A stretch of 20,000 nucleotides of DNA from an uncultured virus (IMG/VR IMGVR_UViG_3300031595_000004) (IMGVR_UViG_3300031595_000004); one strand, 5' to 3'. Numbered from the stretch's first letter, positions 277-19,551 are shown. Made by a program: numbers and translations. Notes: generated from the letters alone by a model not told the origin.

Positions 277-582
277 TTACCATTCTAGATCTGGCAAATC
301 AATAATCTGCCCCACAAGATCGTGAGAGCAGTCTGGACAATAATGGATCTTACCCTCTGTCATTACAAGGTGACAGCGGCGCTGCTTTGGGTCCGGATGA
401 TTCTCGCACGTATTGAGAAGAGATGGCGTGAAGGACGGAGACTCGAGATTACCATTGAACTCCCAGGTTATTGGGCCAGTTGTGTAGAACACATGGCCAC
501 AGTCGCAACCTGGACAGTGAAATACCCAACCTTCTACGGAGCCACCGGATAGTGGTTTGAGTTTTTTTGTAAGAGAATTCAC
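277..582 (-). CDS. Cys/His-rich phage protein (DUF6527-like)
   Basis: CPGC..H, WEFNGNLESPSFTPSLL and RCH..TEGKIHYCPDCSHDLVGQIIDLPD match a widespread phage/bacterial family, recalled as DUF6527. GTG start overlaps the upstream stop. Confidence 0.7.
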   Translation of the reverse strand: MNSLTKKLKPLSGGSVEGWVFHCPGCDCGHVFYTTGPITWEFNGNLESPSFTPSLLNTCENHPDPKQRRCHLVMTEGKIHYCPDCSHDLVGQIIDLPDLEW

Positions 583-800
583 GAATTGTTATCCTGAGTT
601 TTGAATGCTGCACACCACGGACACGAAACCTCATCACATACGCCTCTTTGATGAGCAATCCCTAAAGACGTATTCGTAAATCGTCGTAAATCACCGATAA
701 CCCAATTGCAGTACCCACCATTTTGACATGACGGATCTGCAATATAGCTCGGGCGAATCCGACCGCATTTGTTACAAATCTCACTACTGTCATTGCTCAT
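579..800 (-). CDS. hypothetical Cys-rich protein
   Basis: 73 aa with CNKC and CPWC pairs; 4-nt start/stop overlaps with both neighbours. Confidence 0.65.
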   Translation of the reverse strand: MSNDSSEICNKCGRIRPSYIADPSCQNGGYCNWVIGDLRRFTNTSLGIAHQRGVCDEVSCPWCAAFKTQDNNS

Positions 801-1084
801 GTCGGAGTCCCCTTCCCATTCGAACCGTACTTGCCCGCTCCAAGGTTCGGCCTCTTCGGCAGTCTCTTTATGCTCTCTTGATGTTCAAGGCGCTCTTCTA
901 CTTGAGTTCGTCCACCAAACGTTCGATACGTAATTCTGGTGGCCTTGTCCGTAACCTCCCAGACTCCTTCTTCTTTAGAGACGGCTGAATGAAACGCTGT
1001 CTCTATCGCTTCGGAATTGTGAGTTGTCCGTCCTTGTTTTCTACCAGCCTCCCGGAGCGAGTGAGCTCTGAGAGAGGCGCCCAC
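797..1084 (-). CDS. hypothetical protein (start uncertain)
   Basis: Fills the gap in the leftward operon and its stop overlaps the next ATG. The first ~80 nt overlap the upstream gene, so the true start is probably nearer 1000. Confidence 0.45.
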   Translation of the reverse strand: MGASLRAHSLREAGRKQGRTTHNSEAIETAFHSAVSKEEGVWEVTDKATRITYRTFGGRTQVEERLEHQESIKRLPKRPNLGAGKYGSNGKGTPT

Positions 1085-1527
1085 GTCCGAGCTTTCTCCT
1101 TCGAGTTGGCGTGAGGATACATCCTTATTATCTGTCCTCTTAGTTGTGGGCCTTTCATTCGGATGATTTCTATAATCTGACTTTTCTTGTCCAGAGTTGG
1201 ATCTGGCATCCAGTTCTCTGGAATTGGCGGTAACGCTCCGCTGTGATCCAGATAATCCAATACGGCGCGCGCCTCCATCGCTAGGATTGTTTCTTCTTCG
1301 TCGTCTAAAGGGGCAGATGCCTCTCCCCCGTTCTCTCCTTCGTTCACCTTCTGTCTAGGCTTATACTTCTTAACTCCACCGAGCTTTGCGAGTAATTCGT
1401 CGAGCTCTATGATTCGAGCCATGTACATAGATCGCTCTGCAATAATCTTCGCTTTGAATTCTTCTTGCTTCTCGATGAGAACGCGCGCTTCTTCTTCGAA
1501 TGAGTTTGGTTTTGAATCAGAGTTCAT
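1003..1527 (-). CDS. coiled-coil protein with C-terminal winged-HTH-like domain
   Basis: N-terminal heptad-like helix; C-terminal KKSQIIEIIRMKGP...LSELTRSGRLVENKDGQLTI resembles a wHTH. The start codon lies inside a 13-bp motif copy. Confidence 0.7.
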   Translation of the reverse strand: MNSDSKPNSFEEEARVLIEKQEEFKAKIIAERSMYMARIIELDELLAKLGGVKKYKPRQKVNEGENGGEASAPLDDEEETILAMEARAVLDYLDHSGALPPIPENWMPDPTLDKKSQIIEIIRMKGPQLRGQIIRMYPHANSKEKARTWAPLSELTRSGRLVENKDGQLTIPKR

Positions 1528-1530
1528 GAA

Positions 1531-1743
1531 TTATTCCTCTTTCTCTCTCCCATCTACTGTCGTCCACCCTTCAGACTCTTTGACTTCCGTTTGCACATAA
1601 AACGGAGCCGTCTGTTTCCCATCATCCGGGATGTTGGCATTCACGCAAATGCGGATAGGGCCAATCTTGAATACGATAACGAGCATCTCTCGGTCTTTGG
1701 AATTGACCTTGATTTTTGAGTATCCCCGAAGTTGAATTATCAT
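1531..1743 (-). CDS. hypothetical protein
   Basis: ATG at 1743 (MIIQLRG...), first gene after the leftward promoter; its stop is the TAA of the 13-bp motif. Confidence 0.65.
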   Translation of the reverse strand: MIIQLRGYSKIKVNSKDREMLVIVFKIGPIRICVNANIPDDGKQTAPFYVQTEVKESEGWTTVDGREKEE

Positions 1744-1754
1744 TGAATTACCTA

Positions 1755-1783
1755 TTGACAATCGCCGGGGATTGTAGTAGTTT
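1755..1783 (+). promoter_or_regulatory. sigma70-type promoter, rightward
   Basis: TTGACA (1755-1760), 17-nt spacer, TAGTTT (1778-1783), upstream of ORF 1847. Confidence 0.7.
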
Positions 1784-1806
1784 GCGGGACTCGTCGATTG
1801 GATAGG

Positions 1807-1836
1807 AAACTACCACAATTCACGGGCAAATGTCAA
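1807..1836 (-). promoter_or_regulatory. sigma70-type promoter, leftward
   Basis: Minus strand TTGACA (1836-1831), 18-nt spacer ending in TGG (extended -10), TAGTTT (1812-1807). Confidence 0.65.
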
Positions 1837-1846
1837 TGAGGGTTTC

Positions 1847-2299
1847 ATGATCGTTCTCGCCCCTAATCACATTTTCAACTGTCATGGGTGCGAACTCTTT
1901 CTTCGCAACGTGACCAAAGCCAACGTCGAATTTCGCGACGGCAAATGTCCTCAGTGTCACGCTCAGATTCGAGACACGGACATTCGATCAGCGGATACAG
2001 CCGCTTCGATCGATACGCTCAAACTCTTCCCTCCACACGGAATGAGTTTCAAGAACGAACTCGGAAGCGAAGTAACGATCAAGTATCCGCGTGGACGAGA
2101 GCTCGAACTCTTTACGGAGCTCCAACGTCAACTCCAGAATTGGATTGGTCCCATCGCGGCCAAGCAGCAAAGCGGCTCTACCGGATTCGTGGGAAACGTA
2201 ACGCGCGCGGCGCGCACGATGCCCAAGATTACGGTCGACGAAACCGGAGGCATCGTCATCGAGGAATCGGACGGTCCTCCTGAAGCCGCCAACACATAA
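1847..2299 (+). CDS. hypothetical zinc-ribbon protein
   Basis: RBS GAGGG; CHGC and CPQC pairs at the N-terminus; 150 aa. Confidence 0.75.
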   Translation: MIVLAPNHIFNCHGCELFLRNVTKANVEFRDGKCPQCHAQIRDTDIRSADTAASIDTLKLFPPHGMSFKNELGSEVTIKYPRGRELELFTELQRQLQNWIGPIAAKQQSGSTGFVGNVTRAARTMPKITVDETGGIVIEESDGPPEAANT

Positions 2300-2417
2300 G
2301 ACTAATTCACGAACTTTTTACCGACTTATCCTTAGCGTAACGGGCAAGTCACGAGAACGTCGAATAATCGAACCTTCTCGATGATTCGCTCTTCGAATCC
2401 AACCAAAAGAGAAAACA

Positions 2418-3014
2418 ATGGCCACACCGAACACTGCCAAAAAGCACGACGACGACACAAAAGCACAACCGGCTCCCACCACCCATACGCCAGCGGCAGC
2501 GAGTACCAACGGAGGAGACCGATTCACCAAGATCGAAACCGAACGGTATATGTATAACCCCAACAAGGGTTGCGATACCGTCCTCGTCGGCTACCTACTC
2601 AATCTCCTCCCCATGCCTCCTATGATGATGGGCGGCGAAAACAAAGACTGGAATTGCTTTCTCTTCCGATTGACGGAACCCTGCAAGGTCATCAATCGTG
2701 AAGGAAACGTCATCACGGTTCCACCGGGAAGCGAAGTCCTCTCGCCCGCTACCCACCAGCTCACGCAATATATCGAGCGGGTATCGAGCCGGCCGGACCT
2801 CTGCTTCGAGATGCGGATTAGTCCCAAGAGCAAGCTCGAGATCGGAAAGGGCCAGACCATGTGGCTCTATGACCTCGGCATCAACATGGGCAGTCCCAAG
2901 CCGCGCAAAAGCTTCGGACCTGCGGCTATGCTCGGCGGACCACCTGCATTGACCGGCGGACAAGGGATCGCAGAGCAGGTAGGCGGACCGGGCGCCGACC
3001 AAATCCCGTTCTGA
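2418..3014 (+). CDS. putative single-stranded DNA-binding protein
   Basis: Apparently beta-rich core, Gly/Pro linker, and C-terminal ADQIPF resembling the SSB tip DDDIPF; located in a replication region. Confidence 0.6.
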   Translation: MATPNTAKKHDDDTKAQPAPTTHTPAAASTNGGDRFTKIETERYMYNPNKGCDTVLVGYLLNLLPMPPMMMGGENKDWNCFLFRLTEPCKVINREGNVITVPPGSEVLSPATHQLTQYIERVSSRPDLCFEMRISPKSKLEIGKGQTMWLYDLGINMGSPKPRKSFGPAAMLGGPPALTGGQGIAEQVGGPGADQIPF

Positions 3015-3042
3015 GAGCGAGAGAGAGAAGCGCGTAAGAAAG

Positions 3043-3084
3043 TCCGGGCCACTCGCCACTTTGGTGGATGGCCCGGGATGTTTT
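3043..3084 (+). terminator. probable intrinsic terminator
   Basis: CCGGGCCA (3044-3051) pairs with TGGCCCGG (3069-3076), followed by GATGTTTT, just after the SSB-like gene. Confidence 0.55.
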
Positions 3085-3099
3085 ATAGGGAAAAGGAAA

Positions 3100-3540
3100 A
3101 TGATCAATCCGAAGAAGAAGAGTGACACGGCGGTTGGATTCGACGTAGAGCTCGGGGGACTCTCGCGCCTACGTGTCGCGCTCAAGACCGACCGAAAGTT
3201 GGACAAAGCGCTTGTCGTCTTGGCCGTCCGACCCTTGGACGTACTCATCGAAGAGATTGGCGTACTTCATGCGGACATTGCTGGACCCGAAAAAGGTCTC
3301 TCGTCCTTGAAGAAGCGCGCCGGAGGACTTGTTCGAAAGAGAGACAATGGCTTCGAGTCCGATATCGGAATGCTCTCCAAACTTCGGACGACCGTACGCA
3401 TCGATACCTCTCTTCCAAGAGCCCATGCGGACAAAGCGGTTGCTTCTATCGATGAACTCACCGATGCGCTCTTGAATCTCCACGAGTCCGTGCTCGCTCG
3501 CAAGAGCGCAGTTGCGTCTATTCAGAGAAAGACTGGTTAG
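3100..3540 (+). CDS. hypothetical protein
   Basis: RBS AGGA, ATG 3100 (MINPKKK...), 146 aa. Confidence 0.7.
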   Translation: MINPKKKSDTAVGFDVELGGLSRLRVALKTDRKLDKALVVLAVRPLDVLIEEIGVLHADIAGPEKGLSSLKKRAGGLVRKRDNGFESDIGMLSKLRTTVRIDTSLPRAHADKAVASIDELTDALLNLHESVLARKSAVASIQRKTG

Positions 3541-3556
3541 GAGGACACAAACACCC

Positions 3557-3601
3557 AAAAAGGAAACGCCCCACCCCCAGGCTCAATCCGAGGGGTGGGG
3601 C
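3557..3601 (-). terminator. intrinsic terminator (leftward, possibly bidirectional)
   Basis: 10-bp perfect stem GCCCCACCCC (3568-3577) / GGGGTGGGGC (3592-3601); the minus strand continues GTTTCCTTTTT. Confidence 0.7.
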
Positions 3602-3637
3602 TGCCAATGGGTTGTCGACGACGAAACCGATTACCCG
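3557..3637 (-). ncRNA. candidate ~80-nt small RNA
   Basis: Bounded by the leftward promoter 3644-3672 and the terminator 3557-3601, with no convincing ORF between. Confidence 0.45.
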
Positions 3638-3643
3638 ACTCCC

Positions 3644-3672
3644 AACATAAGATAGTCTAAAGAGACTGTCAA
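3644..3672 (-). promoter_or_regulatory. sigma70-type promoter, leftward
   Basis: Minus strand TTGACA (3672-3667), 17-nt spacer, TATGTT (3649-3644). Confidence 0.65.
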
Positions 3673-3714
3673 GAGGGAGTTCGGCCACGAGCGAGGGATT
3701 CGCGACATGGCAAA

Positions 3715-4407
3715 TTGAAGAAGGAAAGTCCGTGGGCGAAGGGAGCCCGGACCAGGAAACGCAATGCTCGCGCTCGTGAGCGCGCCGCACGCGAGAGATC
3801 CGCCCGCGCCAAGCATGCTGCGCTCGTTCGTTGGTATGGAGAGAAAGGCAAGAAGGGACTCGAAAAGAAGAAGGGACTCGAAAAGAAGAAGGGAGTCGAA
3901 AAGAAGAAGGGAGTCGAAAAGAAGAAGGGACTCGAAAAGAAGAAGGGACTCGAAAAGAAGAAGGGAGTCGGGAAGAAGAAGGTAGTCGGGAAGAAAAAGC
4001 CTGGACCCAAACCGAAATCGAAAAAGGAAGCGGCAATCCAGGCAGAGAATATGAAGCTCAAAAGAGATAATCGGAAACTACTTAAGATAATAGCTGACCA
4101 AAACGTACGAGAGCAGATTACGGAAGCCAATCTCGGAAAAGGAATCATGAAAGAGAGAGGGAAAGGGAAGAATCGAATTTTCGATACGTTGGCAAGGCAC
4201 GGAGCCAAAGAGCATTTGCCTCCAAGGATGCGTCACGAGAGTGACGAAGATTACGCGAAACGCATCATCAAACAACTCATGGGGAAGAAAAACTATACGG
4301 TAGAAGCGGGAAATCTGGCTATGGAGTTTTATCAAGCCATTTCGAACGCTACAGGGGTACAACCTAGAAGGGTGTATACGCTCTTTATGAGTCCAGAAGT
4401 TGCGTAG
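3715..4407 (+). CDS. highly basic protein with KKKG(L/V)E repeats
   Basis: 230 aa, Arg/Lys-rich N-half with tandem hexapeptides and a non-repetitive C-terminal domain; TTG start uncertain. Confidence 0.7.
   Translation: MKKESPWAKGARTRKRNARARERAARERSARAKHAALVRWYGEKGKKGLEKKKGLEKKKGVEKKKGVEKKKGLEKKKGLEKKKGVGKKKVVGKKKPGPKPKSKKEAAIQAENMKLKRDNRKLLKIIADQNVREQITEANLGKGIMKERGKGKNRIFDTLARHGAKEHLPPRMRHESDEDYAKRIIKQLMGKKNYTVEAGNLAMEFYQAISNATGVQPRRVYTLFMSPEVA
3847..3990 (+). repeat. 18-bp coding tandem repeat, 8 units
   Basis: Unit AAGAAGAAGGGA(C/G)TCGAA; first and last units degenerate. Confidence 0.95.
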
Positions 4408-4440
4408 AATTCATGCACTAAAGAGGACGGTCAATTCATC

Positions 4441-5477: not shown

Positions 5478-5771
5478 ATGTCAAAAGTTCATGAACTGCG
5501 CCCTCCTCACTACGTAACGAAAAAAGACGGAACGCTACTACTCGACAAGGAAACAGGTGCGCCTGTCTGGTGCGGGAGTGCGGCAAGCCGTATCGAGCAA
5601 TATAAGAGTCAAGCGGCTCCCGAGCTTACGAAAGAACTCGAGAGAGTCAAAGCGAGACTCGCATACTTCGAAAACAAATACGGTTTTATGGAAACACAAG
5701 AGTGGCAAGAAGCTATCAAGAAAGACAATGAACTCTATACAAATAGAGTCAGCGGAAAGGCTGTCCCATGA
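5478..5771 (+). CDS. hypothetical protein
   Basis: 97 aa, in operon; ATGA overlap downstream. Confidence 0.7.
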   Translation: MSKVHELRPPHYVTKKDGTLLLDKETGAPVWCGSAASRIEQYKSQAAPELTKELERVKARLAYFENKYGFMETQEWQEAIKKDNELYTNRVSGKAVP

Positions 5772-6031
5772 TCCATGAAAGTCCAGAAAACTGGCCGAAT
5801 CACCAAGCGCCGCTCAATGACGATGAGGCGCTCACGGTCGCCAAACTCATCTTGAACGGTAAACACAAGAGCTACATCGAAGGAGCCAAACGACTCGCGC
5901 AGTACGTCATCGCGCTTCACCAGCAGGCAGAAGACATCGAAAAGCTTCTGGACGATGCAGTCCACGATACGATTCCTGAGATATTTGCAGCCGAGGCGCC
6001 GCTCGCTATAGCCGAATCTGCCGAGCCGTGA
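5768..6031 (+). CDS. hypothetical protein
   Basis: 87 aa, coupled on both sides by ATGA/GTGA overlaps. Confidence 0.7.
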   Translation: MIHESPENWPNHQAPLNDDEALTVAKLILNGKHKSYIEGAKRLAQYVIALHQQAEDIEKLLDDAVHDTIPEIFAAEAPLAIAESAEP

Positions 6032-8289
6032 GACTCTCCTATCACTTTCCGTCTGGAGACCCATGCCGCATCTGTAAACGCCCCGCTTCTTCCCACCGTA
6101 TTACCCACGCCTCCGAGGGAAATCCTTGCGCGCGATGCGGCTACGGAGCGGGATATCACACGAGCATTGCGAAACGAGTATTGAGCGACAAAGAATCACC
6201 CCAAAACGAATACCTCGGCATCGACGGAGAGGGACAGGGGCGAGAGGACCACCGCTATATCTTTCTTGCCGTAAGCAGTAGTGACGGCACGCAAAGGTGG
6301 TCTATCGACGGCAAAGTAGAATCGGAGACCGACAAGCGAAGAGTGCGTCTCACGACCAAGGAATCGCTCGATTTCATTCTTTCAATTCCTAAGACCAAAC
6401 GTACCAAAATCTTCGCATACGCCTTTCAGTACGATCTCACCAAGATTTTGACCGACGTCGACACTCGGTCCTTGTACCGGCTCTTTAGACCTGAAACGAG
6501 AAAACGCCGACCTGACGATACGCGCAAGGGCCTTATACCTATCTACTGGCACGGATACGTCATCAATCTTCAGGCGAGCAAGTTTACGGTCAAAAAGGGC
6601 CCAAGACGCGCGACCATTTGGGATATCTTCAAGTTCTTTCAAGGCCGATTCGTCGCTGCCATCCAAGACTGGAAAGTCGGCACTCCCGCCTTATGGGAGC
6701 GGATGGCGCGCATGAAAGAACAGCGCGCCGACTTTGACAAGCTCGATTGGGACAGTGTCAAGGAATACTGCTACGAAGAATGCGCCTCGATGGCCGCCTT
6801 GGCTCAAAAGCTCACCGAGGCTCACGAGAAGGCTGGACTCAAACTCAAGAATTATTACGGAGCCGGCTCAAGCGCCGAAGCGATGCTCACTGTAATGGGG
6901 ATAAAAGCGCGCCTGAGACCATGTCCAGAAGAACTAAAGGACGTTGCCCAGCGCGCCTTTTTCGGCGGTCGGTTCGAGAATTCAGTCTTGGGGACTATTT
7001 CAGGCACTCTCTACGGATACGATATCTCGAGCGCGTACCCGTACGAGCTATGCTTTTTGCCATGTCTCGAACACGGGAGATGGCAGTGGACTCTGGAGCG
7101 AAAGGATCTAGAAGGTCCCCACGTCACTTGCGCTTTGGTACAATATAAGTTGGGTAGAATAAAAAAGGAGGCAGGGCTGGCAACCGGACACTGGGGGCCA
7201 TTTCCTTTTCGTGAGAAAGACGGAAGTATTTGTTTCCCAGTCTCGTCGGGCGGAGGATGGGTGTATCGAGAAGAGTATCTCGTAGGCGAGAGACTTTTCC
7301 CCAATACGGAATTTCACGGAGCCTGGGTCTATAAAACGACGTGCGACTGCCAACCGTTCAAGAAGATTCCCGGGTACTACACCGAGCGGGTACGAATCGG
7401 AAAGGAAGGTCCGGGAATCGTCATCAAACTTGGATGCAATAGCTGCTATGGAAAGCTCGCGCAATCCGTTGGCGCCGCGCGGTTTCAATCGTGGCTTTGG
7501 GCGGGGATGATAACGAGCGGCACGCGCGCAAAGCTTTTGGAGATGGTGGGACTCGTCAAAGACCGAGCTTCAATTCTAATGATGGCGACGGACGGAATTG
7601 TTTCGAGAGAACGAATCAGGGCGCCACGTCCCAAGGACACGGGCACGTTTGACGTCGTCAAGATGAAGGACGGAAAACCGGATGGCGATCCAGTCCCGCT
7701 CGGCGGATGGGAAGAGAAAATCAATACCAAAGGGATGTTTTTCGCTCGACCTGGAATCTACTTCCCACTATCCCCAACGGCCAAAGAGGCCAGTAGCGTA
7801 CGCGGGCGGGGAGTCGGCCGGAAAGCCATCCTAGAGAACTGGCAAGACATCGTCTCCGGATACGAGCGCCTCAAAGAGGAAAAGAAACTCACCACGGGTA
7901 CGGTCAAGATATCAGAAGTGTCGCGGTTCTGCGGAGTCAAGAGTTCGATAACTCCGTCCGATAAGAACGGCAAAAAACTCTATACGCGCGCGTACGGCAA
8001 GCCTGACCCCAAACGCCCAGGCCACCAAACGCCGTCCTACGGGCAATGGATCGTGCGCCCCGTCGAGCTATCCTTCGATCCGATGCCAAAGAGGACCGCG
8101 GTCGGAGAGGCAATCCTTGGACATCTTGCAAGCAGTCTTACCGTACGGAAAGTGAGTCAGAGATTGACGAGCGCCGTGTATGAGAAAGCGCTTGACGAAG
8201 AAGGGAAACAACTCAGGGAAGCAAAAGACGAAGTCGAGGAACAACCGGACTGCGATCTATTCGAAGATGAAAACGAGAGTAATTCATGA
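6028..8289 (+). CDS. polB: family B DNA polymerase, protein-primed-like, with 3'-5' exonuclease domain
   Basis: ExoI IDGEG, ExoII FQYDL, ExoIII YCYEE, FFGGRFE, motif A YDISSAYP, motif B KLGCNSCYGKLAQ, ITSGTR, motif C variant MATDG; long insertion between motifs A and B. Confidence 0.92.
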   Translation: MRLSYHFPSGDPCRICKRPASSHRITHASEGNPCARCGYGAGYHTSIAKRVLSDKESPQNEYLGIDGEGQGREDHRYIFLAVSSSDGTQRWSIDGKVESETDKRRVRLTTKESLDFILSIPKTKRTKIFAYAFQYDLTKILTDVDTRSLYRLFRPETRKRRPDDTRKGLIPIYWHGYVINLQASKFTVKKGPRRATIWDIFKFFQGRFVAAIQDWKVGTPALWERMARMKEQRADFDKLDWDSVKEYCYEECASMAALAQKLTEAHEKAGLKLKNYYGAGSSAEAMLTVMGIKARLRPCPEELKDVAQRAFFGGRFENSVLGTISGTLYGYDISSAYPYELCFLPCLEHGRWQWTLERKDLEGPHVTCALVQYKLGRIKKEAGLATGHWGPFPFREKDGSICFPVSSGGGWVYREEYLVGERLFPNTEFHGAWVYKTTCDCQPFKKIPGYYTERVRIGKEGPGIVIKLGCNSCYGKLAQSVGAARFQSWLWAGMITSGTRAKLLEMVGLVKDRASILMMATDGIVSRERIRAPRPKDTGTFDVVKMKDGKPDGDPVPLGGWEEKINTKGMFFARPGIYFPLSPTAKEASSVRGRGVGRKAILENWQDIVSGYERLKEEKKLTTGTVKISEVSRFCGVKSSITPSDKNGKKLYTRAYGKPDPKRPGHQTPSYGQWIVRPVELSFDPMPKRTAVGEAILGHLASSLTVRKVSQRLTSAVYEKALDEEGKQLREAKDEVEEQPDCDLFEDENESNS

Positions 8290-8486
8290 ACTCAACAATC
8301 GATTGGTCCTCATTCGACAAGTACCTCGAATCCAATTGCGAATGCAGTTGCGGCGTCACATTTCAAAGTCACGCCAAAGCGGTTCGAGACGGAATAAGCT
8401 GGACGCTCGTGTCAAGAAAGCCTTGTCCGAAGTGCGGCAAAAGTAGCGGTCTTCGGTCCATTCGTTCGGACTCGGAAAACGGATAG
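8286..8486 (+). CDS. small zinc-ribbon protein
   Basis: CSCG and CPKCG; ATGA overlap with polB inside a 13-bp motif copy. Confidence 0.75.
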   Translation: MNSTIDWSSFDKYLESNCECSCGVTFQSHAKAVRDGISWTLVSRKPCPKCGKSSGLRSIRSDSENG

Positions 8487-9557: not shown

Positions 9558-9776
9558 ATGCTCAAGGTCATCGTCTCCTCCACCTGGACCCTCTACAGCT
9601 CTAACCCTCCGTCCGGTGTTTCGGAAACTATCCGAGCAACCGAGGCTCCGACACAGCGCGTCTCGTCAGCGCCCACTACGCCGGCTCCCTGCGATGGCAC
9701 GGATTATGAATCCTGCAAGATGTACGCAGCCGTAGCAGTCAAGGGCGGCTTGGCTACCTACATGGCATCACAATAA
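9558..9776 (+). CDS. hypothetical protein
   Basis: 72 aa; ATG 9 nt after the -10 box (near-leaderless); stop is the TAA of the 13-bp motif. Confidence 0.55.
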   Translation: MLKVIVSSTWTLYSSNPPSGVSETIRATEAPTQRVSSAPTTPAPCDGTDYESCKMYAAVAVKGGLATYMASQ

Positions 9777-9789
9777 TTCACGCACTATC

Positions 9790-9818
9790 TTTACTTCTTC
9801 CGCGATTGGCCGTACAAG
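9790..9818 (+). promoter_or_regulatory. promoter, CCG-TAC family
   Basis: TTTACT, 17-nt spacer ending ATTGGCCG, TACAAG. Confidence 0.55.
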
Positions 9819-10033: not shown

Positions 10034-10258
10034 ATGACCAACGAAGAGATCCAGTTCATCGTCAGCACCACCAAACTTGTGGCCGAGCGCATTCAGGCCG
10101 CGGGCGAGATTTACAGCGGTCACCTGTACGGCGACCTTTTGGACGTCATGAGTTTCGACGCCTACAAAGCCGCAGTCCACAGTCTCAAGTCCGGCGGACT
10201 CGTGACCGAGATGCCAGGACACCTGCTTGTGTGGCGGGGAATTCCGAAGGGGAAGTGA
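10034..10258 (+). CDS. small hypothetical protein (wHTH-like)
   Basis: SGHLYGDL...YKAAVHSLKSGGLV...HLLVW; 74 aa. Confidence 0.75.
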   Translation: MTNEEIQFIVSTTKLVAERIQAAGEIYSGHLYGDLLDVMSFDAYKAAVHSLKSGGLVTEMPGHLLVWRGIPKGK

Positions 10259-10262
10259 ATTC

Positions 10263-10469
10263 ATGCACGATCATCGAACCTGCGAAGACGACCAAGACGC
10301 AACAAGGATGGCCGAAACGATCCTACGTGAACTAGGGTATAACAATGTTCAGAAGGGAAGTAATAGGTACGACATACAGTTCAAGTTTTCAGAACGTCAG
10401 CTTCTCAACATCGCGCGGACCGCAGAGCGTATTGCAAGGTGGGCACGTGCAGAGATGAAAGGACGATGA
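10263..10469 (+). CDS. hypothetical protein
   Basis: ATG 10263 lies inside the motif copy GAATTCATGCACG. Confidence 0.7.
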   Translation: MHDHRTCEDDQDATRMAETILRELGYNNVQKGSNRYDIQFKFSERQLLNIARTAERIARWARAEMKGR

Positions 10470-10713: not shown

Positions 10714-11102
10714 TGGTTAAACGAACTCCAGAAACTTGTGTCCAGACATACAGAACCCAAGGGAAGACACCGGCCAGAATTCAAAGGAAGACACCGGCCG
10801 ACGAGTTGAAGCTAATAGTGGAAGTGCTAGGGGAAGGTAAAGAGACACGTCCAACTATCTCCGTAATCTGCTGTATGATCGCAGTAGCTTACTGTTTCCA
10901 TGACGCGCTTCTAGGTAAGTTAATCCTTATCAACATATCAACAATCTTAGTCTGTACTGGAACCTCTTGGTGGTTAATCCGTCGGTACAACCGTTCCCAC
11001 GCTAAATGGCTTCTGGCTATGGCTGCGTTCGAGAATTACAGGTCTCGCCTGACCCACACCATGCCACCTAATTCATGCACTATTCTTGGCCATGACCCTT
11101 GA
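10710..11102 (+). CDS. putative membrane protein
   Basis: Two hydrophobic segments (ISVICCMIAVAYCF; LILINISTILVCTGTSWWLI); ATGA overlap. Confidence 0.6.
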   Translation: MMVKRTPETCVQTYRTQGKTPARIQRKTPADELKLIVEVLGEGKETRPTISVICCMIAVAYCFHDALLGKLILINISTILVCTGTSWWLIRRYNRSHAKWLLAMAAFENYRSRLTHTMPPNSCTILGHDP

Positions 11103-11127
11103 TCTGGTCCACCATTGGCCGTACAAG
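11099..11127 (+). promoter_or_regulatory. promoter, CCG-TAC family
   Basis: TTGATC, 17-nt spacer ending ATTGGCCG, TACAAG; shares ATTGGCCGTACAAGAA with the 9790 promoter. Confidence 0.6.
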
Positions 11128-12099: not shown

Positions 12100-12144
12100 A
12101 CTGAGGTAGGACAATAATTCACGCACTACCGGGTCGATTTCTCC

Positions 12145-12173
12145 TTTACCTTTCGCCCGCTCGGCCGTACTGT
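12145..12173 (+). promoter_or_regulatory. promoter, CCG-TAC family
   Basis: TTTACC, 17-nt spacer ending GGCCG, TACTGT, upstream of the helicase RBS AGGAG. Confidence 0.55.
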
Positions 12174-12190: not shown

Positions 12191-14236
12191 ATGATCCGAA
12201 TCACTTCCGAATCTAGCCTCGTCGTCATCCGACCGGCGGTCTACCTGGGCGGCGACAAATTCCAGTCCTACCGGACGGCAACCGCAGGCGCCAAGTACGA
12301 TCCTGCCCGCAAGGCCCAAGTCACAGTAATTACGAAGCTTCCCGCGATTGTCGAGAAGCTCAAGGCCGCAGGGTTTGGGCTCGACATCGCGCCGGACGTT
12401 CGGGCGAGCTTGGGCGCGATTGTCGCACAAGTGAGCATGGACATTGGAGCTACCGTCGCACGGGCGGACGCGAAGGACGCGGAGCTAGCAGCACGCGGTC
12501 GAGCGCTCTATCCGTTCCAGAAGACCGGGATGACATGGCTGTCGTCGCGTCACGGTGCGCTTATGGCAGACGAGATGGGCCTGGGTAAGACTGTCCAAAC
12601 GCTTATGGCCTTGCCGGACCTCGCGCCCGTGCTCGTGGTATGTCCGGCAGTCGCAAAGGGCGTCTGGAAGCGCGAAGCCGCTCTGTGGCGCCCGGAGTAC
12701 AAGGTCACGGTCCTCTCTGGACGCGGTTCGTTTCGCTGGCCAGCAAGGGGAGAAATCGTCGTCACCAACTACGACATCTTGGGTGTCCGAGACGACACCG
12801 ACGAAAAGGAAGTGTTCGACGCCTGCCCCAAGGGACTCGTTCTTGTGGGCGACGAGATTCATGTCACCAAAAACAGCAAAGCCCTCCGCACCAAGGCGTG
12901 GCGATCCCTCGCTGTGGCCACGCAAAAGGCCGGCGGACGCGTCTGGGGTCTTTCGGGTACGCCGCTCCTCAATCGCGGTCCCGAGCTCTGGGCGGTCCTC
13001 CAATCGCTCGGACTCGCGTCCGAAGCATTCGGTACCTGGGACAAGTTCGTAGCACTCATGGGCGGATCCAAAGGCAAGTACGGCTACGTCTGGCCGCGCA
13101 CTCCGCCGGACCCCGCCAAGGTCGGCGCGGCGATCAAGCCAGTCATGGTCCGGCGCCTTCGAACGGAAGTCTTGCCGGATCTCCCCACGAAGACCTACAA
13201 CACGGTCCAAGTAGATCTCTCCAAGAAAACCGCGAAGATCTGCGATACGGCCTGGGGCCTAGTAGAGCATGCCGCCAAAGACCGCTCGGGACCCGACGAG
13301 GGCCTCTCTATCGGGGAAGTTTCAGAAGCACGCGCCGCGCTGGCACTTGCCAAAGTCGATACGCTTCTCTCGATGGTAGAAGAATTCGAGGAAGCGGAAG
13401 AGCCTATTGTCGTTTTCAGCGCACACCGCGCTCCCATCGATGAGCTTGCCAAGCGCGAAGGCTGGAAGGTTATCACGGGCGACACGCCGAACGCGGAACG
13501 ATCGGCCATCGAGGCAAGCTTTCAACGTGGAGAGCTTAAGGGCGTTGGCGGCACCGTACGAGCGGCAGGCGTCGCCATTACGCTAACGCGCGCGCACCAG
13601 GTTATTTTCGTCGATAGGGACTGGACTCCGGCTCTCAACGAGCAAGCGGAGGACCGCGTGTGCCGGATCGGCCAGGACCGAGGCGTCATCGTGACGGATC
13701 TCGTGGGCGACCATGCGCTCGACTATCGCCTCTACGAAGTTTTGGCGCGTAAAACCGCACTCATTCAGACGACCGTGGAGCAGGGTAGGCAGATGGTGCC
13801 CACTATCGTCAACCGACAGAAGACGATCGAAGAGTTAATCGAAGCGTCGAGCCTGGGCGCTCCAGAGGCGAAAAAAGCTGTACGAGACTTGGCAAGTTCC
13901 GTTGGCCTTGAGAAGGCGACAGATGCTGTCTCAGGCGCGCTACGGCGGGCGGACGAACTTGAGGCTACCAACCGTCGCTACCAACCGCGCTCGGCAACCG
14001 AAGTGTGGACCGCCGACGCTTTGCGTCACCTGGCGGACAATGATCCGGACCGCGCACTTGAACAGAACGGAGTCGGATTCAATCGGTTCGACAATGAGAT
14101 CGGGCACAAGCTCGCCACAGAGCTTGACCGTGGGCTCACGGCTAAACAGTGGGAGCTCGCGGCGAGGCTGTGCGCCAAGTATCAGGGACAGGTGGGGCAG
14201 AAGCCGAATGCTGCACAAACTACCTTGGAAGAGTAA
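12191..14236 (+). CDS. SNF2-family (HARP/SMARCAL1-like) SF2 helicase/translocase
   Basis: Q motif LYPFQ, Walker A ADEMGLGKT, VVCPA, DEIH, LSGTP, AGVAITLT, QAEDRVCRIGQ. Confidence 0.93.
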   Translation: MIRITSESSLVVIRPAVYLGGDKFQSYRTATAGAKYDPARKAQVTVITKLPAIVEKLKAAGFGLDIAPDVRASLGAIVAQVSMDIGATVARADAKDAELAARGRALYPFQKTGMTWLSSRHGALMADEMGLGKTVQTLMALPDLAPVLVVCPAVAKGVWKREAALWRPEYKVTVLSGRGSFRWPARGEIVVTNYDILGVRDDTDEKEVFDACPKGLVLVGDEIHVTKNSKALRTKAWRSLAVATQKAGGRVWGLSGTPLLNRGPELWAVLQSLGLASEAFGTWDKFVALMGGSKGKYGYVWPRTPPDPAKVGAAIKPVMVRRLRTEVLPDLPTKTYNTVQVDLSKKTAKICDTAWGLVEHAAKDRSGPDEGLSIGEVSEARAALALAKVDTLLSMVEEFEEAEEPIVVFSAHRAPIDELAKREGWKVITGDTPNAERSAIEASFQRGELKGVGGTVRAAGVAITLTRAHQVIFVDRDWTPALNEQAEDRVCRIGQDRGVIVTDLVGDHALDYRLYEVLARKTALIQTTVEQGRQMVPTIVNRQKTIEELIEASSLGAPEAKKAVRDLASSVGLEKATDAVSGALRRADELEATNRRYQPRSATEVWTADALRHLADNDPDRALEQNGVGFNRFDNEIGHKLATELDRGLTAKQWELAARLCAKYQGQVGQKPNAAQTTLEE

Positions 14237-14269
14237 ATTCACGAACTAGAGAAATGGTAGAGAAGTACA

Positions 14270-14527
14270 ATGTCTGGAGTACACATAAAGAAGCTAAAGA
14301 CGCTTCCTAGCGCGTTCGAATACGACGCGAACGACGGACCTGCCACTGTCAAGATGGAGTGGATCCGTCACCGAGGATGGTGGCTTGTAGGCGAAGACGA
14401 AGAGGATTGTCACGGCGACGAGAACTGTTCAATCGTACCAGGAAGACCAGTTTATCTCACGGGGGAAGATGGTGTGATGTACTGTATCCACCATGCGCCG
14501 GTAAAACCACCTCCAGGAGTTAAGTAA
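14270..14527 (+). CDS. hypothetical protein
   Basis: 85 aa with C..C..C..H residues; flanked on both sides by the 13-bp motif. Confidence 0.7.
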   Translation: MSGVHIKKLKTLPSAFEYDANDGPATVKMEWIRHRGWWLVGEDEEDCHGDENCSIVPGRPVYLTGEDGVMYCIHHAPVKPPPGVK

Positions 14528-14610
14528 TTCACGAACTTAGACTAATCTTTCTTCACGTTCGACCGTACCATTACATAGGGTACACAGTACCAATTCAAAG
14601 GGGAACCTCA

Positions 14611-14832
14611 ATGCCTGTCATCTTCACGCAAGTCCAAGACCAAGAATTCGCCCGCGCCGAACTCCTCACCAACATCGCGTATCTCAAGACGAACGCGGAT
14701 AAGCTCAGTATCAAGACGAAGCTCCATGCGTACGCGCTCGTCCTCGATGCAATCCAAGAATACCTCGAAGCCGAGGAAGACCTGTCGGACCACGTCATAG
14801 AGGCCGCTATGGCGGTCGGGGAAGAAACATGA
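14611..14832 (+). CDS. hypothetical acidic protein
   Basis: RBS AGGGG; 73 aa; ATGA overlap downstream. Confidence 0.7.
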   Translation: MPVIFTQVQDQEFARAELLTNIAYLKTNADKLSIKTKLHAYALVLDAIQEYLEAEEDLSDHVIEAAMAVGEET

Positions 14833-15526: not shown

Positions 15527-15572
15527 AGAGTCGGCTGCGTAGACCGTTCTATCTAACTGAAGGAGCTAATTC

Positions 15573-16103
15573 ATGAACTACCGAGCCATCACCGCGTCAC
15601 TTCTCACTTTCTCGGCAGGATGCGGAGGCGCGGAGTTCACGCTGCAAAGTGCACCTGCCGCGGATACGGGAAACATCGTCACTACAGTAGACCCAATGCC
15701 GGAGCCGGATGCTCAAGCGACCCTGCCGACTGGGGACGCAGGCGACGCTGGGGACGCAGGCGACGCTGGGGACGCTGGGGACGCTGGGGACGCTGGGGAC
15801 GCTGGCGACGCTGGGGACGCTGGAAACGCCGCTTGCGATAGCGGAGCGCCGGTCATGACGACCTGCGCCGCAACGAACGAAAGTGGATACCTCTGGTTTA
15901 CGGCACCAACCCAATACTGTTCGATGTACGTGCAAAACCTAGCTGGAGTCATCACGTCACAAGGGCTAGCGGTACCGTCCGAATGCTTGTGTAATTACAC
16001 GTGCGATTGCCTTATCGCATCGAGCGCGGACCTCTGTCCAAACGGGGGAAAGTTCGTGAACTGTCAAAACGATAAGGGCGGTCTAATCGTGGACTGCAAG
16101 TAA
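15573..16103 (+). CDS. putative lipoprotein with GDA repeats and Cys-rich domain
   Basis: RBS AGGAG; signal peptide with lipobox-like SAGC; (GDA)10; about 9 Cys in the C-terminal domain. Confidence 0.8.
   Translation: MNYRAITASLLTFSAGCGGAEFTLQSAPAADTGNIVTTVDPMPEPDAQATLPTGDAGDAGDAGDAGDAGDAGDAGDAGDAGDAGNAACDSGAPVMTTCAATNESGYLWFTAPTQYCSMYVQNLAGVITSQGLAVPSECLCNYTCDCLIASSADLCPNGGKFVNCQNDKGGLIVDCK
15732..15830 (+). repeat. 9-bp coding tandem repeat, 11 units
   Basis: GG(G/C)GACGC(T/A) x10 plus GGAAACGCC. Confidence 0.95.
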
Positions 16104-16118
16104 GGAGGATCCGGCCAG

Positions 16119-16412
16119 ATGAATTTTGAAGAATTTCTCGTCTCTATCAAGGACCAACTCCAGAAGATGGGAACTCCCGATCCGGAGAAACACAACATCG
16201 ATTGCGGGAGCCGGGTCTGTTTCCTCTGCCGCTATCACGACAGCATCCCCGCTGATGAGGCGCTCATCGGAGCCCTTTTTCTAGGACACGATCTGTGCCT
16301 TGATTCGCCCGAAGTGCGCCTTCACGTACTCAATCGGCACTTCTGCAAGATTCACATCACTCTTTTCTACGAATTCATGAAAGTAGAAAAGCGGGAATCA
16401 TTCGGTAGGTAA
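16119..16412 (+). CDS. Cys/His-rich hypothetical protein
   Basis: Strong RBS AAGGAGG; 97 aa. Confidence 0.75.
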   Translation: MNFEEFLVSIKDQLQKMGTPDPEKHNIDCGSRVCFLCRYHDSIPADEALIGALFLGHDLCLDSPEVRLHVLNRHFCKIHITLFYEFMKVEKRESFGR

Positions 16413-16437
16413 GTAAGGAACTTCCGTACATCACAAG

Positions 16438-16458
16438 TTTTCCACAGGCTGTGGATAA
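16438..16458. promoter_or_regulatory. inverted pair of DnaA boxes
   Basis: TTTTCCACA (16438-16446), 3-nt gap, TGTGGATAA (16450-16458, reverse complement TTATCCACA); both fit TTWTNCACA. Confidence 0.65.
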
Positions 16459-16512
16459 GTGGTACGCGGTACCTGTGGAGGGAATAATTCGCACAATACC
16501 AATCCGTAGTTC

Positions 16513-16541
16513 TTGAATTGCCAAACACTCTCGACTAGTGT
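16513..16541 (+). promoter_or_regulatory. possible sigma70 promoter of the ParB-like gene
   Basis: TTGAAT, 17-nt spacer, TAGTGT. Confidence 0.45.
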
Positions 16542-16585
16542 CTAACCCCTCACAGCGTATCTCACGCACGCAGCGGCAGTACCTC

Positions 16586-17707
16586 ATGAAGCCTCAAACT
16601 CTCGTAGTGAAGACAAAGGCAGGCAAGCCAATGGCCGATCCGCAGAACATTATCAAAGAAGACGAAATCAAACACATTCCGCTCGCCGACATCTACGTGG
16701 ACTGGGCATGGAACTCGCGTTCCTTTGCGAACGTCGTCAGTGACCATTCCGAGAACGACAGCGACGCCGAGGGTATTACGGGACTTACGCGCGGCATCTT
16801 CCTCGACGGCCAGGACGAAGCTATCGTGCTTAGGCCGACAAGTGGCGAAGGTTTCTACAAAAAGGGCGCCAAGCAACCATACGCGCTCGTGGCAGGGTTC
16901 CGGCGCTTCGAAGCCATCCGACGCCTCAATAACCCAAAGGTCAAGACCGAGAAGGACCCGGGCGAAATCTCGGAAGACTTCGCGAAACTCATCGAAGAGC
17001 GAAAAGCCGCAAAAAAGTCCCTCGTCCCCAATACGGCGGACGGGACCATTCGGGCCGTGGTCAGGACTCTCGCCGAGTCCGAAGCTCGGATGTTGAACCT
17101 CCGGGAGAACACCAACCGCGATTCGCTCACGGCTCCCGACCTTATGATGGCGTGCAAGACCCTCAAGGAAAAGCACGATCTCACCGACACGCAAATTGCA
17201 GAGCATCTCGGCAAGTCCCAGGGGCACATTTCGATGCTCGGGCGCGTGGCCAAGTGCGACGGGGAAATCCTGAACCATTGGCGGAACGGCGGCGAGTTCC
17301 ACGGTCTTCCGGCCAACCTTCGCGCGACCGTGCGCGAGCTCGACGATATCTCTAAGCTCGAAGGCAAGGAAGCTCAGACCAAAGAGTACGTCAAGATTCT
17401 CCAGGCGAAGATCCCTGCCGGCGACGACAAGGACAATAACGCGTGGGTCAAGAGCGCCAAGAACAAGGCTGCCAAGATAGGCGCGCTCTTGGGCACACTC
17501 GAGAAAGCAGCCGTCCTCAAGGTTAATCCGAAGGTCGCTTCGGCGTGGCACGAGTTTATCGACCTCATCGTCAAAAACGGCAAGAAGGAACTCTCGGCGC
17601 GGCAGGCAAAATCGGTCGGAAAGGCCGCCGAAGAAGCGTACCTCGAAGCCCTCAATGCGGTCGAAGAAGAAGAAGAGGAGGACGAGGGAGACGACGCGAC
17701 GGCGTAA
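16586..17707 (+). CDS. ParB/RepB/Spo0J-like protein
   Basis: IPLADI...GQDEAIVLRP, YALVAGFRRFEA (GxRRxxA), ENTNRDSLT, HTH TDTQIAEHLGKSQGHISML, acidic tail. Start is ATG 16586 or 16631. Confidence 0.85.
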   Translation: MKPQTLVVKTKAGKPMADPQNIIKEDEIKHIPLADIYVDWAWNSRSFANVVSDHSENDSDAEGITGLTRGIFLDGQDEAIVLRPTSGEGFYKKGAKQPYALVAGFRRFEAIRRLNNPKVKTEKDPGEISEDFAKLIEERKAAKKSLVPNTADGTIRAVVRTLAESEARMLNLRENTNRDSLTAPDLMMACKTLKEKHDLTDTQIAEHLGKSQGHISMLGRVAKCDGEILNHWRNGGEFHGLPANLRATVRELDDISKLEGKEAQTKEYVKILQAKIPAGDDKDNNAWVKSAKNKAAKIGALLGTLEKAAVLKVNPKVASAWHEFIDLIVKNGKKELSARQAKSVGKAAEEAYLEALNAVEEEEEEDEGDDATA

Positions 17708-18023
17708 GTCAGGACTTCGGAGGGCTACGGAAGCAGGTCTCTAAGCCAAGAGTGAGCGGGTTTACCATCGCGCCCGAGCTCCCTATTGATGCTTAGACTA
17801 AATGTCTCTGTAGTTTGCGATTCTCGGCCGGAACGAGAACTCCGGAGACACCGGCAGTCGATGATCCGACGAGACTATCGTCGCCTAGGAACACGCTGAC
17901 AGACCGTGTCATCGCACGTCTGTCACCCTTCGGGGTTTTCGACTTTCGTACGCTGGGGCGTATCAGGTAGGACCGCTTGGCCCGAGTCCAAATTCATCCC
18001 ATAGAGAACTCAACCGTTTTACG
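17708..18023 (+). ncRNA. candidate structured non-coding RNA/element
   Basis: Unusually long gap for this window, with nested stems and a C(UUCG)G tetraloop at 17925-17936. Confidence 0.4.
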
Positions 18024-18242
18024 GTGTCGATCTCTATACAAGATCGGGCAGAGAGGAGTGGATGTCTTGATACGCTCCAGCGTAGGAGGGCCGAGAGATT
18101 GAAATACACACCACGTCACACGAAACTCCAAGGACGATTGTCCGTCCCCGCTCGCGCATACGAAGCGGAAAAGATGGTCCGAGAAGGGATGAAGCCTCGC
18201 CTCGTCGCAGAGCGATTCGGAGTATCCGAATCCATGAACTAG
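18024..18242 (+). CDS. small HTH protein, possibly truncated
   Basis: AEKMVREGMKPRLVAERFGVSES is HTH-like but stops within the recognition helix; start uncertain. Confidence 0.5.
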   Translation: MSISIQDRAERSGCLDTLQRRRAERLKYTPRHTKLQGRLSVPARAYEAEKMVREGMKPRLVAERFGVSESMN

Positions 18243-18250
18243 ATTCTACC

Positions 18251-18982
18251 ATGGACGGCATAGCTAACCCGCCGCCGCTATCACCAAAGAGACGGCCGAA
18301 ACCTGAACTCAAGTGGTCCTGCAAACGCTGCAATACTCCCATCGCAGAGAATAAGTCCAACCTCTGCAAAGCGTGCTTCAAAAAAAGACCGCTCATCTTC
18401 TGCAAAAAATGCGGAAAGAAGTGCCGGGCACGACGTAATGAGCTCTGTAACAGGTGCGCTCCTATTTGGTATAAGGCCCCTCCCGTCGAATTCGTGAAAG
18501 ACGGAGTCAAACTGTGCTGCTTCACTAGACACGAATCGTACGGAAAAGGGATTCAGAAGGACATCTTTCTCACCTGTCAACTGCCAGAAGGACACTTAGG
18601 AAGGCACGCTCAAGTAAGAGGGAAAGTCACTCACGAATGGGGAAGCATCTGCGGCGCCCTGAACCTCAGTCGTCCTTGCGTTCTACCGAAAGGACATATA
18701 GAGCCGCATCGAACATCGAAAGGGCTCACGTGGGGCAATGAGCCGCCGCCAGAGAAAAAGGCAGTCCCAATAGCCAAGAAGGTTCTGGCGGTCAAGGTTA
18801 GTAATAAACGATGCAACGTCCTCACGTTCTCAGGATCTTTCCACTGCGTTCTAAGACGTGGACACCTGGGAAGGCACGCTTACAAGTTTCAAGGACAATG
18901 GTTTGATTGGTCGGATAGAGATACTCGAGTTCGTCAAGTGAAAAAAGGAACTCTCCTATATGGTCAAAGAGGACCTAAATAA
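18251..18982 (+). CDS. basic multi-zinc-finger protein
   Basis: Four CxxC pairs, then CQLPEGHLGRH, CVLPKGHIEPH and CVLRRGHLGRH repeats, each followed by Trp. Confidence 0.75.
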   Translation: MDGIANPPPLSPKRRPKPELKWSCKRCNTPIAENKSNLCKACFKKRPLIFCKKCGKKCRARRNELCNRCAPIWYKAPPVEFVKDGVKLCCFTRHESYGKGIQKDIFLTCQLPEGHLGRHAQVRGKVTHEWGSICGALNLSRPCVLPKGHIEPHRTSKGLTWGNEPPPEKKAVPIAKKVLAVKVSNKRCNVLTFSGSFHCVLRRGHLGRHAYKFQGQWFDWSDRDTRVRQVKKGTLLYGQRGPK

Positions 18983-19205
18983 ACGCCTCAAACGATGTCT
19001 CGCCGCTTGGAGGAAGTCTATCGCCGAAGAACGATGCGGCGCCTGCGGAGCTCGAGTCCACCGAACACAAGAAGAGCTAGAGCTTGAAGCCGTCGCAACG
19101 AAGATCGAAGAGATAGAAGCCGAAGCACCCACGAGACCGAAGATGAAAAAGATCGGGGAGGGAGCTCCAAGACCTATCACCAATCGGCCGCCAAGGATAA
19201 AGTAG
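18960..19205 (+). CDS. hypothetical protein
   Basis: RBS AAGGA; 81 aa; CGAC. Confidence 0.6.
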   Translation: MVKEDLNKRLKRCLAAWRKSIAEERCGACGARVHRTQEELELEAVATKIEEIEAEAPTRPKMKKIGEGAPRPITNRPPRIK

Positions 19206-19238
19206 TCGGCTCTAGCCTGAAACTAGAGGAGTAATCGT

Positions 19239-19460
19239 ATGGCGAATGTAGGCTGCATCATACTTTGGTTTCTTGGAGGTTTCGAAATGTACTTGACGCT
19301 TATCAGTTTACCAAAGAGCGGTTTGCCAAAGAGACCAAGACCTCCGGATCATCCACCGTGGGCAGATACATGCGGAAACGTCTTTTGGGCTGTTCTATGG
19401 CCGCTCGCAGTGGTTATTCTTATTGTCAAGTGTCTCTTTTTCTACCTTTACGACGAATAA
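19239..19460 (+). CDS. small membrane protein with two TM segments
   Basis: RBS GAGGAG; two hydrophobic helices with a WP motif; stop is the TAA of the 13-bp motif. Confidence 0.75.
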   Translation: MANVGCIILWFLGGFEMYLTLISLPKSGLPKRPRPPDHPPWADTCGNVFWAVLWPLAVVILIVKCLFFYLYDE

Positions 19461-19551
19461 TTCACGCACTAATGTAGGTTCTTCTCCTACCTAATTCATG
19501 ACACTCTAGACACACTCTCGATTCAGTAGTGTGGGTACACTCATACCCACC

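Follow-up and report, generated by a model that had tools for sequence, protein, structure and literature searches.

The 20,000-nucleotide stretch analyzed here (the window) makes up the final 20 kb, at the right end, of a 73,685-bp contig (G000) of an uncultured virus (IMGVR_UViG_3300031595_000004). The contig comes from an undescribed soil virus with a tectivirus-like DNA polymerase gene, polB, and also encodes a RadA/KaiC-like ATPase, an SNF2 helicase, lysis genes, spike-like proteins, and an orphan ParB-like protein. The subject of this study is a short repeated site, which a sequence-only reading of the window had described as a transcription-oriented 13-bp motif at the gene junctions. 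The motif was found to be real and quasi-palindromic, with the proper unit being a 14-bp pseudo-palindrome, TARTTCA/YGMAYTA, as obtained by an iterated matrix, and with half-sites that mostly read N-A-W-K-Y-C. The nine exact copies and two first-base variants of the earlier description were all in place, its approximately seven degenerate copies correspond to seven more places (575, 5485, 9495, 10257, 16051, 16508, and 18228), and the TAA stop codons (1531, 9774, 14525, and 19458) and ATG or GTG codons (582, 1527, 8286, 10263, and 15573) that it had assigned to the motif were confirmed in the sequence. The sites are as follows, in window coordinates.

575..588, plus strand: site antisense to the local genes, overlapping the stop codon of 579-800 and the GTG of 277-582; 18.6 bits
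1520..1533, minus strand: site holding the stop codon of 1531-1743 and the ATG of 1003-1527; kept in L009, L011, and L012
2303..2316, plus strand: site at a gene junction; 14/14 identical in L009 and L012, where the flanks diverge
4407..4420, plus strand: site at a gene junction
5485..5498, no strand assigned: near-symmetric site, 7 bp inside gene 5478-5771
8280..8293, plus strand: site at the end of polB; an extra gene lies 3' of the site in L009, L012, and L039
9495..9508, no strand assigned: intergenic site; orientation varies among relatives
9774..9787, plus strand: site with a predicted -35 box 2 bp downstream of it
10257..10270, plus strand: weak site (15.6 bits) at a stop/start overlap
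11069..11082, plus strand: site with a predicted -35 box 16 bp downstream of it
12115..12128, plus strand: site with a predicted -35 box of the SNF2 helicase gene 16 bp downstream of it
14235..14248, plus strand: site at the end of the SNF2 gene
14525..14538, plus strand: site holding the stop codon of 14270-14527
15567..15580, plus strand: site holding the ATG of 15573-16103
16050..16063, minus strand: antisense site within gene 15573-16103, 40 bp from its end
16507..16520, minus strand: antisense site that precedes the ParB-like gene by 66 bp; the gene may be autoregulated through it
18228..18241, plus strand: weak site, made by an 18-bp patch that cuts the small helix-turn-helix gene; absent in strain G001
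19458..19471, plus strand: site, probably at the inner edge of an inverted terminal repeat, judging from 30-letter loose ends in three runs

Matches to the motif with at most two mismatches numbered 24 in the window, a figure that counts three places on both strands, versus 0.92 expected, and none of 200 shuffles reached 24. The motif holds across the window, as had been claimed, and its extent is larger: a distribution scan of the whole 73.7-kb contig, with a site matrix trained on this same genome, gave 47 sites of at least 17 bits and 59 of at least 14 bits, compared with 0–2 in each of 20 simulated genomes. Most of the 47 strong sites (39, against a background of 24%) are at or near gene junctions and the other eight are deep in genes; 18 overlap a stop codon and six a start codon, and 34 of the 129 gene junctions carry a site. 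As for the claim that orientation follows transcription, it holds for 27 of the 35 asymmetric sites, which are in the sense direction (P = 0.002), with the weaker half-site downstream in 17 of 17, and it fails for the sites at 575, 16050, and 16507, which are antisense.

The sites are spaced evenly. The coefficient of variation (CV) of the gaps in this contig was 0.54 versus 0.97 for uniform and 0.98 for junction-matched placement, and none of 2,000 draws was as even. The same was observed in G003:C100, a distant relative represented by a 45-kb contig with the same gene order and an inverted repeat of ~110 bp at both ends, which we read as a complete linear genome: it has 42 sites with a gap CV of 0.56 (0 of 5,000 draws as even), with a site as the innermost element of each terminal repeat. 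Loose contig ends suggest that the present contig also has an inverted terminal repeat. When copies less than 60 bp apart were merged, even spacing was also demonstrated in L018 (P = 0.0016) and L040 (P = 0.008). Furthermore, nine sites were observed inside genes versus 0.19 under synonymous resampling (maximum of 2 in 100), and these fall in the longest gaps (0 of 5,000). The polB of L040 similarly has five sites inside versus 0.39 expected, where the claims on L040 and L052 rest on G002, which is unpublished. Twelve hand-picked orthologous sites were 93% identical, compared with 33% and 46% in the ungapped flanks, and orthologous sites can flip their orientation (9495 and 11069). Between close strains, sites are gained and lost via short patches.

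A palindrome of their own at a similar density was found in nine of the 12 lineages that could be judged, including G003:C100, the judgment covering loci of 7 kb or more and, in addition, L017. The same motif is kept in relatives with a polB at least 80% identical, and the palindromes of the others are CATTTCRYGAAATR in L016, TATTCCRYGGAATA in G003:C100, TAATCCTAGGATTA in L017 and L018 with a looser form in L019, TAAGCCTAGGCTTA in L040, and AATCCT-N-AGGATT in L004, with weaker signals of GAAGTCYRGACTTC in L014 and CTTACGCGTAAG in L023. The palindromes of L018 and L040 are near-perfect, and such sites carry little or no orientation; the centre bias in G003:C100 was 20 versus 9 (P = 0.06). No motif above one shuffled control each was detected in three groups of the polB tree, which are L015, L005/L006, and L021/L022/L030. 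In L015:3771-4030, three tandem repeats of ~100–140 bp, each with a 16-bp palindrome, GCCACAAGAGTGTGGC, lie between polB and SNF2; this relative has a ParB but no dispersed sites, and the cluster is a parS-like alternative to them.

A close strain was found as six contigs of a Polyangiaceae metagenome-assembled genome (MAG), G001, of 6.5 Mb, the host assignment being one of binning. All 28 exact motif matches in G001 were on the six contigs that align to the virus, and the check for an equal density in the host chromosome found the motif absent from the rest of the MAG. In G003, all the exact matches and all but two of the one-mismatch places were likewise on the viral contig. One locus of the MAG, L048:900-5757 (G001:C168), runs past G-rich terminal repeats into DNA of 67% GC without the motif; this flank has an open reading frame (ORF) of 555 amino acids that is primase-like by eye, and it could be an integration, a second element, or a misassembly. 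Taken together, the sites exist, are evenly spaced, are under selection at the DNA level, also within genes, and are specific to the virus.

The candidate binders are three genes in the window, which are described below with helix-turn-helix abbreviated to HTH.

16586..17707, plus strand: orphan ParB/Noc-like protein with a CTPase-type N-domain (GFRR, ENTNR) and an HTH at about 201-223; candidate binder
18024..18242, plus strand: small HTH gene, cut off at the recognition helix in this strain
1003..1527, minus strand: winged HTH candidate of the sequence-only reading; no family match, confined to the close clade

The ParB-like protein scored 20.3 bits with HTH_ParB, below the Pfam cut-off of 22.6, and matched a PDB profile at 2.3e-12 (hmmsearch). 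Its predicted structure, with a pLDDT, the predicted score in the local distance difference test, of 80, had Noc as the best Foldseek match (2.8e-8), with ParB also among the best, and the Noc/ParB fold is shown at the level of the model; residues 1–22, with a pLDDT below 50, are predicted to be disordered and vary across the alignment. Of the HTH proteins that could be recognised, the ParB-like one alone is common to this virus and the complete relative. Its 12-residue recognition segment is 12/12 identical in P0170, P0125, and P0177, which are 85–97% identical overall and accompany the same motif, and 4/12 identical in L016 (59% overall), whose motif differs; helix and motif track each other in five lineages, yet three ParB-bearing loci are without a motif. 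The position that aligns with ParB 173 holds Q, and positions 2 and 6 of the half-sites are A and C, in register with TATTTC of the Noc-binding site (NBS). In Noc, Q173 reads that adenine, according to the part of the report cited here (PMC7383237). The dyad symmetry of the site fits a dimeric binder. Orphan ParB-fold proteins are described as common on mobile elements in the portion of the literature consulted (PMC12704722), which gives no binding sites for these proteins.

The two other genes were rejected as binders. In this strain, the gene at 18024-18242 breaks off at the recognition helix, where 42 bp have given way to an 18-bp patch that also creates the weak site at 18228; G001 keeps a longer, uninterrupted gene (see also L045 and L047). 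The gene at 1003-1527 was not detected in L016 or G003:C100.

Some of the sites stand close to predicted promoters, of which the following were found in the window.

9790..9818, plus strand: predicted sigma70-type promoter, TTTACT-17-TACAAG; by pattern only
11099..11127, plus strand: predicted sigma70-type promoter; by pattern only
12145..12173, plus strand: predicted sigma70-type promoter; by pattern only
1755..1836, no strand assigned: overlapping divergent TTGACA promoters, where the direction of transcription switches; no strong site nearby

All eight TTTACY/TTGATC-17-TACAAG promoters with a scored site nearby, in this genome and three relatives, have the site 1–16 bp upstream of the -35 box, and a ninth has a sub-threshold copy there, the pattern being drawn from these same examples and hence partly circular. 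A generic promoter/terminator scan was near chance (15 versus 9.5 and 20 versus 22.9, respectively). The unit of site plus predicted promoter repeats (9790, 11099, and 12145 in the window; 14656, 14975, and 16553 in L011) and would drive small accessory genes, the order of which varies by relative. At 3644-3672 on the minus strand of the window, a conserved TTGACA-17-TATGTT promoter, present also in L009 and L011, points against the local genes and could give an antisense RNA.

We propose, with roughly even chances of being right, that the sites are loading sites for the virus's own ParB/Noc-like clamp, which would coat the linear genome and damp the early promoters in a KorB-like manner. A 14-bp two-fold symmetric site is kept every ~1.5 kb along the whole viral genome, and the HTH of the ParB-like protein would read its half-site; the protein would clamp on at each site, with CTP presumably closing the clamp. 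The clamps would then slide from the sites and coat the linear genome, terminal proteins may stop them from running off the ends, and the coat could organise or protect the intracellular genome. At the early promoters with a site 1–16 bp upstream of the -35 box, the clamps may in addition damp transcription, as KorB does on RK2. The sites would be at gene junctions because a 14-mer costs least there, and their overlaps with start and stop codons would be a by-product of that location. Loading sites for the ParB-like protein were one of three options of the sequence-only reading, and this option is the best supported as a candidate explanation, by the fold and by the tracking of helix and motif; the three ParB-bearing relatives in which no motif was detected count against it.

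Several observations weigh against this proposal. Three of the eight ParB-bearing lineages (L005, L015, and L030, the last holding only a ParB fragment) had no repeated motif above a single shuffled control; the motif lineages L018, L019, L023, and L040 show no ParB in their short fragments of 7–11 kb, and none was found in G002. The spacing was not significantly even in L016 (P = 0.12), and the divergence of its helix is not extreme, with 12% of windows being as low. The centre of the site is 2 bp versus 4 bp in parS and NBS, A2 is kept in L014 in spite of a P at position 173, and a K179/K184 permissive rule fits, in our own reading, only three of the five motif lineages. The sense bias is unexplained by a symmetric clamp. 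Finally, no KorA-like partner or Noc-type amphipathic helix was recognised, and no ParA was found among the 117 proteins of the contig, where only the RadA/KaiC-like ATPase and SNF2 were seen, or in the complete relative G003:C100.

If the proposal were extended to the relatives, it may be possible that linear, protein-primed, motor-less viruses form a large undescribed family in which a Noc-like CTP clamp, together with a palindrome specific to each lineage and placed every 0.5–1.5 kb, serves as a genome-wide self barcode, with the clamp coating the whole genome between the terminal proteins for replication or assembly and with site and helix drifting together so that each lineage handles only its own DNA. 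We put this forward tentatively and would rather expect some part of it to fail.

Among the alternatives, the one that survives best, although unlikely, is that the sites anchor another, unrecognised viral dimer, by which the genome would be condensed or tethered when a membrane-containing, motor-less virion is assembled. Such a dimer would suit the even genome-wide spacing and the sites at the inner edge of the terminal repeats, and it would explain the ParB-bearing relatives without the motif; the virus also encodes numerous basic proteins of small size, along with conserved membrane-type proteins that belong to no known family, and no terminase, portal, or A32/FtsK packaging ATPase was found in the 117 contig proteins or the 68 ORFs of the complete relative. 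However, L021 and L030 have the same structural genes yet no detectable motif, no candidate with a recognisable DNA-binding fold was found for the dimer, and packaging needs no fixed position upstream of one promoter class.

Less likely again is a stoperator-type network, another option of the sequence-only reading, in which a non-ParB repressor would block initiation at the early promoters and elongation elsewhere, silencing a carrier-state genome. The part of this option that stood is the promoter-proximal position of a subset of the sites and the sense bias described above, and the concentration of the sites at junctions is on the same side. The consensus is lineage-specific, as it is in Cluster A in the part of the source cited (PMC6550527), and the binning of the close strain in a Polyangiaceae MAG is compatible with a carrier state. 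The part that did not stand is the asymmetry: stoperators are asymmetric, whereas the sites here are dyads, and those of L018 and L040 are nearly perfect palindromes with little or no orientation. Moreover, both of the other HTH candidates fail, the strong divergent TTGACA promoters are without a strong site, and no match to a Cluster A-type repressor was obtained with PHROGs.

It is very unlikely that the motif serves each downstream gene as a virus-specific signal, whether as a promoter or for RNA processing or translation. The overlaps with stop and start codons would suit such a signal, as would L018, in which almost every site precedes a ribosome-binding site, but sites also lie deep inside genes, including polB, and orthologous sites flip. 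An RNA hairpin was rejected, the dyad mismatches (A.C at pair 3-12 in 25 of the 47 sites and T.C at pair 5-10 in 17) being ones that break RNA pairing; no conserved hairpin and no Rfam match were found, nor was an RNA polymerase or sigma factor of the virus. At 8280, the overlap with a start codon is specific to the strain: its ATG opens a zinc-finger gene only in this strain group, and L009, L012, and L039 have a gene between. Because the overlaps with start and stop codons lack conservation, the function is not one of translational coupling.

The third option of the sequence-only reading, integron-like crossover sites for gene-cassette exchange with translational coupling, is highly improbable. 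In a comparison with strain G001, none of 19 gene-scale indels or replacements had a filled allele flanked by sites on both sides, and the two scored as such have one site counted twice. Three of the 19 have an end within 12 bp of a site, which favors the exchange of cassettes, and seven have one within 45 bp, which matches the share of junctions with a site (34/129; P = 0.21). Two copies bracket one small gene in L011, and short patches add or remove sites between close strains; nevertheless, the sites are also inside essential genes, and several other synteny breaks are at start codons or short repeats. No motif-to-motif junction was among the joints listed for four runs, in which contigs hide rare molecules, and loose ends at 2318 were rejected as a rearrangement, as they come from a second site elsewhere that shares ~21 letters. 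No integrase or recombinase was found in the 117 contig proteins and the 68 ORFs of the complete relative, a scan that took in this contig, which is incomplete at its ends, and those ORFs of the relative that have at least 70 amino acids. The least credible alternative, a host regulator such as LexA as the owner of the motif, follows the tectivirus GIL01, which reportedly uses the LexA of its host, and is refuted, if G001 is the host, by the viral location of all the exact matches in G001 and G003.

With respect to the virus itself, polB (6028..8289, plus strand) is of family B and of the protein-primed type (PF03175), and 1,424 relatives were found among 8,000 candidates scored. Its nearest cultured matches, at 25–29% identity, are phages of Rhodococcus, Streptomyces, and Microbacterium (Toil, WheeHeim, and Badulia), which belong to the tectiviruses. 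The Microbacterium phages among them are assigned to the tectiviruses in the part of the report cited (PMC11768872). Direct polB and ParB scans of viral contigs gave no close relatives, alignment-based scans gave three distant loci, and no further polB carrier was found among 301 genomes of the family of G001. The virus is probably tailless because tail and terminase genes are missing. A conserved capsid candidate, rich in beta structure, is encoded at G000 43232-43966; its N-terminus is acidic or Gly/Tyr-rich, and its model had a pLDDT of 36; it had no PDB or Pfam match, two ESM Atlas look-ups returned only unnamed viral clusters, and a scan of viral contigs for it gave no relatives. We did not file the virus as a tectivirus: polB and the terminal repeats, which are probable in this contig, fit, but the capsid protein is a candidate only and no packaging ATPase was found in the family. 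No account of the virus family or its palindromes appeared in the literature searched, which held few subscription papers and no supplements.

Other features of the contig were also observed. Adjoining the capsid candidate, the conserved gene at G000 42562-43140 has a Cys-His pattern by eye and could be a maturation protease, and G000 32000-48100 holds ~20 tiny Lys/Arg-rich ORFs, many opening with MP(A/H)KR, which may be protamine-like core proteins. At the left end (G000 1-3300), spike-like genes are duplicated with a copy number that varies by strain, and run X23 skips 2,378 bp between the repeats. The ORF at 15573-16103 of the window is lipoprotein-like with a DAG tandem repeat, presumably of a kind found in Polyangiales proteins, which fits the Polyangiaceae bin.

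Among known systems, the nearest precedents are KorB-OB and the dispersed repeats of the Cluster O mycobacteriophages, the latter being close in form. The sections of the report drawn on here (PMC4351075) describe more than 30 copies of a 17-bp dyad repeat, intergenic and in genes, mostly away from promoters, absent from the host, and of unknown function, and identify gp90 of the Cluster O phage Corndog as an orphan ParB-like protein. The likeness thus includes more than 30 dyad copies in and between genes, their absence from the host, and an encoded orphan ParB-like protein; unlike the present virus, Cluster O has tailed phages, a 7-3-7 layout, one sequence in one cluster, and a higher density at one genome end, as far as those sections go. 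In contrast, the virus described here has a 14-bp layout, statistically even spacing, and nine lineages with differing sequences that can be compared with ParB helices. The Cluster O palindromes have been unexplained since 2015, and orphan phage ParB proteins are mostly without known sites.

The plasmid RK2 carries about a dozen OB sites in 60 kb. Its KorB is a ParB-family CTP clamp loaded at dispersed palindromes, with the proximal OB sites 4–10 bp upstream of promoters and others far from them, in the part of the source cited (PMC11790492). Both systems have dispersed palindromes, some of them close upstream of promoters, and a ParB-family protein; RK2 also has a ParA (IncC) and the clamp-locking KorA, whereas the virus has ~50 sites on a linear genome and neither a ParA nor a partner that was recognised. 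By this analogy, we propose that the system may work most like KorB-OB. Noc-NBS and ParB-parS share with it the best fold match, an orphan ParB, scattered palindromes, Q173, and the A/C register with NBS, but they have, in the parts of the reports used here, 16-bp chromosomal sites with a 4-bp centre, and Noc has an N-terminal amphipathic helix (PMC7383237, PMC8429893). The present system is not a ParABS partition system because no ParA was found, and it is not Noc because no amphipathic helix was found. Nor is it a stoperator system, because the site is a dyad. Cluster A stoperators comprise 20–30 sites genome-wide with a lineage-specific consensus and an orientation tied to transcription (PMC6550527), the stoperator being an asymmetric 13-mer bound by a monomeric repressor (PMC9283540), again as given in the portions cited, whereas a dyad site, a partial orientation bias, and no such repressor were found here.

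In this virus family, at least five natural pairings of a ParB-like helix with a distinct palindrome are available, which makes cross-binding a question that can be put directly. If the pairing is true, CTP sliding clamps, so far those of centromeres and plasmid silencers, would come to include coats that cover viral DNA over the whole genome, and the family would provide a natural series for the evolution of ParB specificity and half-site spacing and possibly orthogonal clamp–site pairs. Compared with the known systems, what is new here is the even spacing across a linear protein-primed genome, together with a lineage-specific series of sites that can be compared with the ParB helices.

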